Shown: positions 9,884-39,126 of the stretch, piece after piece
Layout of the letters: the number at the start of each line of letters is the position of its first letter
Position numbering within the stretch: position 1 is the first letter of the stretch
NCBI GenBank assembly: GCA_951406725.2
Contig: OX597832.1
Span: 25,544,001 to 25,608,000 of the forward strand
Direction of reading: 5' to 3'
Origin: Octopus vulgaris
Lineage: Eukaryota
Length of the DNA stretch: 64,000 nucleotides
Position numbers and translations under genes: made by a program
Notes under the pieces: model-generated
What the model saw: the letters and a program-made list of their open reading frames with translations, nothing else
What the model was told of the DNA's origin: nothing
Databases searched by the model: none

Positions 9884-10438
9884 GCCCTGATGCAGTACCA
9901 GGCAGTGGCTCTCATGGCTTCTGATCTTAACTGATTGGAAGTGTTATCATGTACATTGTTTTGTCTTGGTATAAAAGATGGGCTACAGCAAATATTCTGC
10001 TCAATACCACAGATTTGCTTGTCAGTTGTTTGACCTTAACCAGTTGAGCATGTCCCTTAGTGGCTGACGATATGTGCATCTCTGATCACGAGCAGAAGTA
10101 GTGGGGGAGCATCATGGCCATGTGTTGAGAGGGATTCTTTGGAGTTTGAATGGTTCACCTCTGGAAACATAGGTGTTTCGTTCAACATCCTAAAGCAACC
10201 CTTATTCAGGGACCGTTTGAGCAGGATGAGCTACTCAACCTGAAGAAAATTCTAACTGGGCCCCACCTGCAAGGTCATGTGCTGTTTATCTTGATATGAG
10301 ATCACCATGTCGCGCACATATGGCTGTGATGCATGTGCCTGGTGTACCTTTATCAGACGGGTAGTCATGATGGGTATATTGGGCTTCGTATATTTTAACC
10401 CAGTGTCACTTTGATGGCATGAACTGCTCTCTCACTCA
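9881..10438. mobile_element. Non-coding interspersed repeat inserted in a (TAA)n tract
   Basis: About 560 bp of complex sequence bounded exactly by (AAT)n on both sides; family not identified. Confidence 0.45.
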
Positions 10439-11494: not shown

Positions 11495-12722
11495 CAGGGT
11501 GTCCATAAAGTTTCTTTACAATTTTAAAATTTTATTACAAAGGCAGTTGACAAGATATCTTAACCAGATTTGTTTTATTGTAATCATTGTTTATTGAAGT
11601 TCTTTTAACTGTTATTTAATAGACCTCAATATGGGCACCATTAGTTGCGCGAAGCACATCAAGACGGTACTCGATTTCTTGCCATGTTCGTTGTAGGATA
11701 GCCTCATAAACTGTGGCAATGGTATTACGAATCCTTTGCTTCAAGTCAGCAATGTCCCGTATCTTTGTTTGATACACGATGTCTTTTACATAACCCCATA
11801 AAAAGAAGTCCAAGGGAATGATATTTGGCGAACATGATGGCCATGGAATTGGCCCATCCCTTCCAATCCATCGGTCTGGAAATGTTTGATTGAGGAACTA
11901 ACGAACATGCCGTCGCCAATGTGGTGGTGCACCATCTTGCTGGAGAATGATGGCTGGTTGTAAATCAATCAGTTGTGGTGCCACATATTCGGTCAGAAGG
12001 CCGAGGTAAACATTTGCAGTCAATGTTGCCTCGTTGAAGAAAAATGGACCAATTATTCGATTGCACACGATTCCATACCACACATTCACTTTTGGACTAT
12101 CCCGTTGAAGCTCCCTGGTGTAATCTCTCGAAAGAGCTGTTCTTCACTCCTGCTCCAGAGCGTCGGCTGCGGGGTCATTCCGAAAAGCTCTATCTGCGAC
12201 GATTTCATCTCAATCGAAGGAGAGGGGCTTTCTCCGCCCGGGTTGCTGATCCGTGGAATAAGGTGCCGGACGAGATGGTGAAGATACCGACGACCGCTCG
12301 GTTCAAAGTCTCCCTTGGCCTCAAGTGGCCTGAACTCTTTACACGAACACCACCCTGTACATAACTCCATGTCCCCCTACATGGCCTTGCTTCTTGCTTT
12401 TTGAGCCAAAAAATTAACTAACTAACTAACTAACATGGGGGTGTTCTGATCCCCAGATTCCCACATTGTGTCTGTTTAATTTCCCTGAAACATGAAAAGT
12501 CACCTCGTCACTAAAACAAACTCGCTTGAGGAATGCTTCGTCCTCATTTTATAGGGGTTCAGTGAATCAGTTCCCTTCCATCAACAGAGTATCTGAAACA
12601 CAAAAATTTAACATCGATATAAACTTTAATAAACAATTATTAAAATAAAACAAATCTGGTTAAAATATCTCATCAACTGCCTTTGTAATAATTTTTTTTT
12701 TAAATTGGACTCTATGGACAAC

Positions 12723-12725: not shown

Positions 12726-12775
<50 letters not shown>

Positions 12776-12894
12776 CATTCACACTTTGAGTTTGGTGATA
12801 CTAGTTGCGGATTCTAGCTCGCTCTGATACTGAGTGGAGTTGGTGCCTTCTAGTATCTCAAAATTCAATATATAATCATTTATGATTATAGTAT

Positions 12895-12995
12895 TCTACG
12901 CTGAAGAGAAAAGAAGTTTTGGGTAAGGTAGAGTTATTTAATATTTAATTCTTATGCTTTCCTAAAAACTTGATTTCGAAACGTGCGTCCGTAGA
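12895..12995 (+). ncRNA. Type I hammerhead ribozyme, canonical core, extended helix II
   Basis: Helix I TCTACG/CGTAGA; CTGAAGA 12901-12907; long helix II 12908-12977 (GAAA/TTTC, AAGTTTT/AAAACTT); GAAA 12978-12981; minimal helix III AC-GTGC-GT; GUC cleavage triplet 12987-12989. Confidence 0.8.
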
Positions 12996-13404
12996 TAACT
13001 TAAAATTGTATGATAGATTGCCGTCTATTCATTCTCTCTTACCTGTTTGTGTATGCCTTCCAATTGCTGTTTTTACTGAGATCTCCTTTTTAGTAGAAGA
13101 AATAGCTATAACCCTTTGACTGCTATTTCTAAATTCGGTATGTGGTAAGGCAATTCGTTGCTAAACCCTTTATTGCTTAGTATTACTATATATATATATA
13201 TATATATATATTTGGTTTTTGGATTTGGTTTGCAAGATTCTTTATATGAGTTCGTGTGTTGAAGCATATTCTGTTGTGCCTGGGGAGAGTCATTCTCTTT
13301 TAGTGCCTTATTATTTAACACACTCACCGGTAAAATTTCCACTTATTTCTTATTTTTATTTTCTAAAATGCAAGTTATGAGTTTATTATTCAAATAATAT
13401 ATAT

Positions 13405-36276: not shown

Positions 36277-36848
36277 GCGGCACAAGACCCGAAATTTTTG
36301 GGGAGAGGCCCAGTTGATTAGATCGACCTCAGTACGCAACTGGTACTTAATTTATCGACCCCGAGGGGATTAGAGACAAAGTCAACCTTGGAGGTATTTG
36401 AACTCAGAACATAAGGACAGACGAAATACCTATTTCTTTACTACCCACAAGGGGCTAAACATAGAGGGGACAAACAAGGACAGACAAACGGGTTAAGTCG
36501 ATTATATCGACCCCAGTGCGTAACTGGTACTTATTTAATCGACCTCGAAAAGATGAAAGGCAAAGTCGACCTCGGCGGAATTTGAACTCAGAACGTAGCG
36601 GTAGACGAAATACCTATTTCTTTACTACCCACAAGGGGCTAAACACAGAGAGGACAAACAAGGACATACAAAGGGAATAAGTCGATTATATCGACCCCAG
36701 TGCGTAACTGGTACTTATTTAATCGACCCCGAAAGGATGAAAGGCAAAGTCGACCTCGGCGGAATTTGAACTCACAACGTAACGGCAACCGAAATACCGC
36801 TAAGCATTTCGCCCAGCGTGCTAACGTTTCTGCCAGCTCGCCGCCTTA
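36277..36848 (-). mobile_element. Tandem trimer of SINE family D (184-bp period)
   Basis: Units at 36423-36606 and 36607-36790 are near-identical; a single head at about 36790-36848. Confidence 0.85.
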
Positions 36849-39055: not shown

Positions 39056-39126
39056 GCATCGATGATTCTGTGGTAGAATGCTCGCCTGTCACTCGGGTAG
39101 CCCGGGTTCGATTCCCGGTCGATGTA
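39056..39126 (+). tRNA. tRNA-Gly(GCC)-derived gene or pseudogene with GTC (Asp) anticodon
   Basis: 71-nt near-match to the invertebrate tRNA-Gly-GCC sequence GCATCGGTGGTTCAGTGGTAGAATGCTCGCCTGCCACGCGGG... (recalled); intact B box GGTTCGATTCC; anticodon 39088-39090 is GTC; TTTTT terminator follows; A14 lost and a C-T mismatch in the anticodon stem. Confidence 0.8.

Follow-up and report, generated by a model that had tools for sequence, protein, structure and literature searches.

The stretch of DNA analysed in this work (the window, 64 kb from Octopus vulgaris) harbors, at positions 12895-12995 of the forward strand, a motif with the layout of a hammerhead ribozyme. From 5' to 3', it comprises the 5' strand of helix I (TCTACG, 12895-12900), the first half of the core (CUGAAGA, CTGAAGA in the DNA, 12901-12907), an extended helix II whose 70 nt separate the core halves (12908-12977; recognized from folds, covariation, and alignment), the second half of the core (GAAA, 12978-12981), the near-palindrome of helix III (ACGTGCGT, 12981-12988; recognized from the energy of its self-duplex and from its central pair in the 26-row alignment described below), and the 3' strand of helix I (CGTAGA, 12990-12995), which pairs and covaries with the 5' strand. 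According to the established hammerhead consensus, cleavage is predicted at GUC/C (12989-12990), that is, after C12989. The canonical core, the 6-bp helix I, the near-palindromic helix III, and the long helix II had all been described in the initial annotation, and each was found again at these positions; the cut that it proposed after C12989 of a type I hammerhead is backed by conservation and covariation in the relatives of the motif.

The motif contains the type I core (CUGANGA...GAAA...UH) with the pairs G10.1-C11.1 and A15.1-U16.1, surrounded by three helices, with an open-ended helix I and with support from covariation. A relaxed descriptor run on both strands of the 64-kb window retrieved two matches, namely this motif and a weak one at 10064 whose helix II is only 2 bp long. 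Furthermore, in a scan of 1.1 kb the Rfam model Hammerhead_1 (RF00163) aligned exactly with 12895-12995 (21.1 bits, E 0.035), the match spanning all 45 positions of the model. This score is below the gathering score of RF00163 (34 bits); in the Rfam scan of the window at gathering level the hammerhead was absent, and a tRNA was the sole match. This shortfall is likely due to the long insertion in helix II. MicroRNA matches appearing in the 1.1-kb scan were rejected as (TA)n artefacts. On sequence grounds, the motif is a real type I hammerhead motif and not a chance arrangement.

The motif is embedded in a 5'-truncated solo copy of a repeat (12772-13187, + strand) representing about 416 of 594 bp, with a 97% match to positions 175-589 of a natural unit (L011). 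The copy corresponds to these unit positions only; it is a single truncated unit lying between two (TA)n runs, with no tandem partner. The run at the 5' junction (12738-12772; TRF and sequence) is likely half of the insertion target, and the one at the 3' junction extends from 13187 to 13211 (TRF). At the 3' end of the copy (13160-13187, + strand), the clustering of family ends revealed the recurrent terminus of the family, an ACCCT-TTATT motif followed by the junction about 195 nt past the cleavage site. Being truncated and solo, the copy lacks a partner in cis and cannot yield an RNA of unit length; it is probably a dead end.

As for the surroundings, positions 11619-12720 hold fragments that, judged by their motifs, are presumed to come from a Tc1/mariner-like transposase; a presumed LINE-like 3' end with a (CTAA)n tail splits them at about 12120-12435. 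Positions 36312-36798 hold 2.6 tandem copies of a 184-bp unit, presumably an octopus SINE. A tRNA-like match (Rfam RF00005, 54 bits) at 39056-39126, beside (TA)n, may be a tRNA gene or a tRNA-derived repeat.

Genome-wide searches covered the 2.8-Gb assembly (227 contigs). The window segment yielded 2296 first-look candidates, and the best 40 of these 2296, which were scored, were 96-100% identical; the window copy shares 96-98% identity with the best 39 other copies scored. The intact core of the window copy would agree with a ribozyme domesticated by the host at this locus, for instance in an intron or a UTR. We assign this explanation a negligible probability: the copy is truncated, is this close to dispersed relatives, and lies among transposon fragments and microsatellites, and no host-gene-like frame is evident among the listed stop-free frames of the window.

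The complete unit of the family is 593-597 bp long and is arranged head to tail in arrays, the longest of at least five units, and each unit has one type I hammerhead. The arrays are dispersed, often with an inverted 5' piece and (TA)n at their ends, and the junctions fall inside (TA)n, where target-site duplications are unreadable. The six-frame translation of the unit disclosed no long ORF, and its GC content is 35%, under the 45-50% used as a criterion for non-LTR retrozymes. The pattern CTGANGAN{60,80}CGAAACGTGCGTC had 245 matches genome-wide versus 0 for the reversed control, and a second intact-core pattern had 721 versus 2, the two sets overlapping a little. The core conservation in homologs on which the initial annotation had made its proposal depend was observed in 53 of the 56 close copies covering the motif, a set biased to intact copies, being the best-scoring ones only (three duplicate loci and matches below 93% identity were excluded). 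The testable features of such elements are present at the level of the family, and the repeat is accordingly classed as a non-coding, tandem non-LTR retrozyme; the family is young and high-copy.

In the 26-row alignment, 97% of the cells are paired, compared to 18-40% in slid-structure controls, and 7 of the 17 pairs are changed on both sides: three (out of six) in helix I, two in the proximal part of helix II, one beyond its internal loop, and one at the centre of helix III. The rows are distinct but related and were chosen by the core pattern, so that the core, C11.1, and the outer pairs of helix III could not vary; the covariation thus supports the helices, not the core. The core is backed independently by two sister families, since these were located via 3' sequence outside the ribozyme and still carry intact cores. 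In the first, with a 545-bp unit and 58% unit identity, 15 of 20 loci retain the intact core, and the helix II region is only 25 nt long; the second, with a 473-bp unit (L211-L225) and 48% unit identity, has a helix II of 64-65 nt and an intact core in 10 of 15 loci, several of which come from one array. This 473-bp family has a 12-nt palindromic helix III. A third sister repeat of 561 bp (L196-L210) shares the 3' block; no canonical hammerhead of its own was found in its 15 loci, and it may hold a variant ribozyme. Moreover, other, unrelated hammerheads with a long helix II were observed on the minus strand at L068:1780-1865, at L195:2348 and 2883, and at L146:3708 (helix II of 49, 58, and >75 nt), which suggests that the genome contains more families of this kind.

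The helix II of the window copy forms a rod of -17.5 kcal/mol, a value equaled by none of 300 dinucleotide shuffles. It is built of 4 bp, a 2x2 purine internal loop, and then an imperfect AU-rich rod, near the tip of which lies a 7-nt tandem duplication. The length of the region differs among subfamilies (52-53, 60-61, and 69-70 nt); in the alignment, the step from about 60 to 70 nt largely corresponds to the 7-nt duplication, whose number also varies in contigs of sequencing runs. The long helix II is therefore a family-wide trait and no quirk of the window copy, although one sister family has only 25 nt there. Most families form a stable distal rod, through differing pairings (z from -1.6 to -6.6), and what is kept in the alignment is the purine-rich internal loop 4 bp into helix II, together with a U-R step immediately past the 6 bp of helix I. 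We infer that the proximal stem and the internal loop matter and that the distal length is tolerated: the first 4 bp and the adjoining internal loop would likely correspond to the usual stem II and loop 2, and the rest would be a tolerated structured extension. A GGTAA(G/A) word in helix II (12922-12928 of the window), resembling a 5' splice site, is kept in the aligned subfamilies; no splice-type joint was seen at this GGTAA in the run contigs, whose RNA nature is guessed.

Helix III comprises 2-3 bp in the monomer versus 8 bp (two of them G-U) between two copies, and its self-duplex has an energy of -8.8 kcal/mol. When the window copy is folded as a monomer, the pairing probability is 0.95-0.99 for helix II and about 0.01 for helix III, helix I being partially formed. 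The central pair of helix III is UG, UA, or CG in 26 of 26 rows, which makes the helix always self-complementary. The folding of natural two-unit stretches, based on nearest-neighbour predictions without tertiary contacts, gave the full double hammerhead as the unconstrained minimum fold in 7 of 8 cases from the closest subfamilies (2/2 and 5/6) and in none of three stretches from two distant families. The double-hammerhead folds of the natural stretches leave both cores unpaired, and the energies of two monomer folds lie 5.6 and 13.9 kcal/mol higher. These models lend support to the dimer that the initial annotation had suspected, and the hammerheads of tandem units are predicted to cleave mainly in pairs. 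It is established that amphibian and viroid motifs can act in the dimer mode (PMC6155905, PMC4209133, PMC3088659), and for Xenopus retrozymes one out of nine dimers is reported to be cleaved in vitro (10.64898/2026.07.22.740005).

The genome holds several young autonomous Penelope-like families. In the 984-aa frame of a Hydra-type family, the motifs RWK, DKT, CxCX5C, CxxC, and CxH are present, and DKG and GxKF are absent, in agreement with the Hydra signature given in PMC8557442. At Hydra-type loci, a type I hammerhead with a helix II of 53-60 nt follows the ORF in 15 of 30 and in 15 of 16 loci, and the loci end in (TA)n. One Hydra-type family shares the terminal word CTTTATTGCTT with the retrozyme repeat; the autonomous Penelope-like families compared do not share the ACCCT portion of the terminal motif. 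Pfam matched neither of the two Hydra-type proteins and neither of two fragments lying next to the element in the window, so the Hydra-type and window-fragment labels are assigned on motifs.

Some of these elements show features of their own. The young family with the 984-aa frame (L136:2089-6850, G000:C19 near 23.22 Mb; L135-L150) carries a hammerhead with a 60-nt helix II in both terminal repeats and exceeds the length of the Hydra elements described (<3 kb). A second young Hydra-type family (L256:4234-4674; 717-aa frame, tandem unit of about 2590 bp) shows a motif resembling a hammerhead, in which CCGAAGA replaces CUGAAGA and the helix II region is 31 nt long. Finally, a young Neptune-like Penelope element (L099-L104) has a unit of about 4.5 kb, a 784-aa frame with RT and GIY-YIG, a 472-aa upstream frame, a possible intron, many identical copies, and (TA)n targets. 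It lies beside one copy of the repeat and was rejected as its partner, having no hammerhead by descriptor and no similarity to the unit; the adjacency is best read as a sharing of (TA)n targets.

The 5' truncation, the inverted 5' pieces, and the (TA)n targets of the retrozyme family reproduce the anatomy described for Penelope-like elements. This is what would be expected if the unit were the terminal repeat (pLTR) of an autonomous Penelope-like element yet to be located, the window copy being an ordinary 5'-truncated insert, and the similar long-helix-II hammerheads of the Hydra-type elements point in the same direction. Moreover, the flanks of the loci extend for 1.5 kb only, one Hydra family has its hammerhead 1.5 kb past the stop codon, and the proteins scored are only part of thousands of candidates. 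In the arrays, however, what adjoins a unit on its 5' side is a further unit (in rows of up to at least five), an inverted piece, or (TA)n, and the pieces of Penelope-like ORFs found near copies (L002, L029, L037, L065, and L170) are either on the opposite strand or separated from the copy by (TA)n and downstream of it; in the loci read, with their 1.5-kb flanks, no RT-endonuclease ORF was found directly upstream on the same strand. Nor does the unit have DNA similarity to any of the four autonomous Penelope-like families compared, and a BLAST comparison with three Hydra-type families gave no match to their own repeats. We thus regard the terminal-repeat explanation as very improbable. Since the four autonomous families are not homologous to the unit, the partner of the retrozyme is one that we infer rather than identify.

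The reading that we prefer, with a probability of roughly 0.75, is that a non-LTR retrozyme of about 594 bp, likely spread by a Penelope-like RT and endonuclease, has this motif as its type I hammerhead, which is predicted to cleave mainly in pairs. In a transcript of at least two units, the palindromic helix III halves of two copies would pair and form a double hammerhead, each core of which would cut after GUC, giving monomers of 593-597 nt; these, by analogy with the retrozymes of coral, mussel, and axolotl, would be ligated into circles. A Penelope-like enzyme, most likely of Hydra type, would then nick (TA)n, and priming at a point some 190-200 or 285-300 nt past the cut, followed by copying round the circle, would produce inserts longer than one unit. 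Most 3' ends of the family cluster 185-206 or 285-304 nt past the cut, not at the cut, and each cluster is preceded by an ACCCT-WWATT-like word. For a natural monomer folded in circular form, 66% pairing is predicted (z -5.1, 60 shuffles).

This pattern of 3' ends fits the copying round a circle and the copying of an uncut multimer equally. The repeat might be mobilised from uncleaved linear multimer transcripts, with a hammerhead that is kept, cuts rarely, and gives no circle: the inserts span intact cleavage sites and have their 3' ends 190-300 nt from the cut, and Penelope-type hammerheads cleave poorly in vitro according to PMC4209133. Contigs of three sequencing runs guessed to be RNA, which cross the cleavage site, would agree with this too; together with those of one large run of unrecorded kind, they cover all 30 bins of one unit. 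These contigs, which cannot show ends, strand, or level and none of whose runs is recorded as RNA, contained neither a splice-type joint nor any sign of a start or an end, and they carry no weight on either side of the question of expression. On the other hand, the core and the helices are kept across families that are 48-58% identical, which argues for selection for a working fold, abundant circles are described for the related mussel retrozymes in PMC7229834, and a circle accounts for the same junctions. Mobilisation from uncut multimers appears quite improbable to us, and cleavage in pairs followed by circularization is retained as the preferred reading.

The octopus retrozyme can be compared with known systems. 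It shares with the metazoan non-LTR retrozymes (PMC7229834; 10.64898/2026.07.22.740005) the low GC content, the non-coding tandem units with one type I hammerhead each, the short palindromic helix III, the many solo copies, and the coexistence with Penelope-like elements. The unit is longer (593-597 bp) than the 150-450 bp of PMC7229834 and falls inside the 51-972 bp range of 10.64898/2026.07.22.740005, whose sampling comprised 31 vertebrates, three insects, and one anthozoan. The main difference resides in the helix II region, which spans 52-70 nt here versus a 4-bp stem with a small loop in the metazoan elements.

The terminal repeats of the Hydra clade of Penelope-like elements (PMC8557442) have the same type I topology, palindromic helix III, and (TA)n targets; the same source lists a Hydra family from Octopus bimaculoides, and Hydra and Naiad elements for Octopus. 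In the published Hydra motifs the core halves are about 11-26 nt apart (PMC8557442, supplementary file S2), in contrast to the 53-60 nt of the Hydra-type elements and the 52-70 nt of the retrozymes found here. Among the motifs listed there, a similar length (about 54 nt) occurs only in the spike-moss element PLE-X1_sMoe, flagged as deviating, and Naiads, one of them from octopus, have long-spaced "half cores" of 35-50 nt. The newt and axolotl satellite-2 and the Schistosoma Sm-alpha hammerheads (PMC6155905, PMC7229834) share the 6-bp helix I, the 4-bp proximal helix II, and an unstable helix III rescued by the double-hammerhead fold; their loop 2 is a terminal loop, whereas here an internal loop takes its place and runs on into a long rod. 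In the hammerheads of fungal viruses, a "long" helix II is one of 6-8 bp (PMC13725137). The mostly open-access literature searched gave no account of octopus retrozymes or of such a helix II; an earlier listing, for instance in a repeat database, is possible. What is new here is a structural variant of the non-LTR retrozyme hammerhead having a long helix II, the retrozyme type itself being known.

A bolder proposal would treat the hammerheads with a long helix II as a subtype of their own, with an internal loop standing where loop 2 was and with the rod serving as a functional handle, either for the Penelope-like enzyme or for activation at the level of the monomer. This subtype would be common to the Hydra-type elements and to a guild of parasitic retrozymes, and abundant ribozyme circles of 470-600 nt would arise from about a thousand or more motifs missed by Rfam-level searches. 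We consider it rather unlikely.

In conclusion, these data extend the non-LTR retrozymes to a cephalopod genome and indicate that a genome can hold many hammerheads whose helix II comprises 50-70 nt and which lie under the Rfam cut-off; this, in turn, would imply that the "half-core" and "no hammerhead" calls made for Penelope-like elements may be undercounts. The genome of O. vulgaris offers a natural series of helix II regions (25, 52, 60, 65, and 70 nt) and several young autonomous families sharing the (TA)n target, and is therefore suited to two questions, that is, the role of the hammerhead for Penelope-like elements and the enzyme moving the retrozymes.
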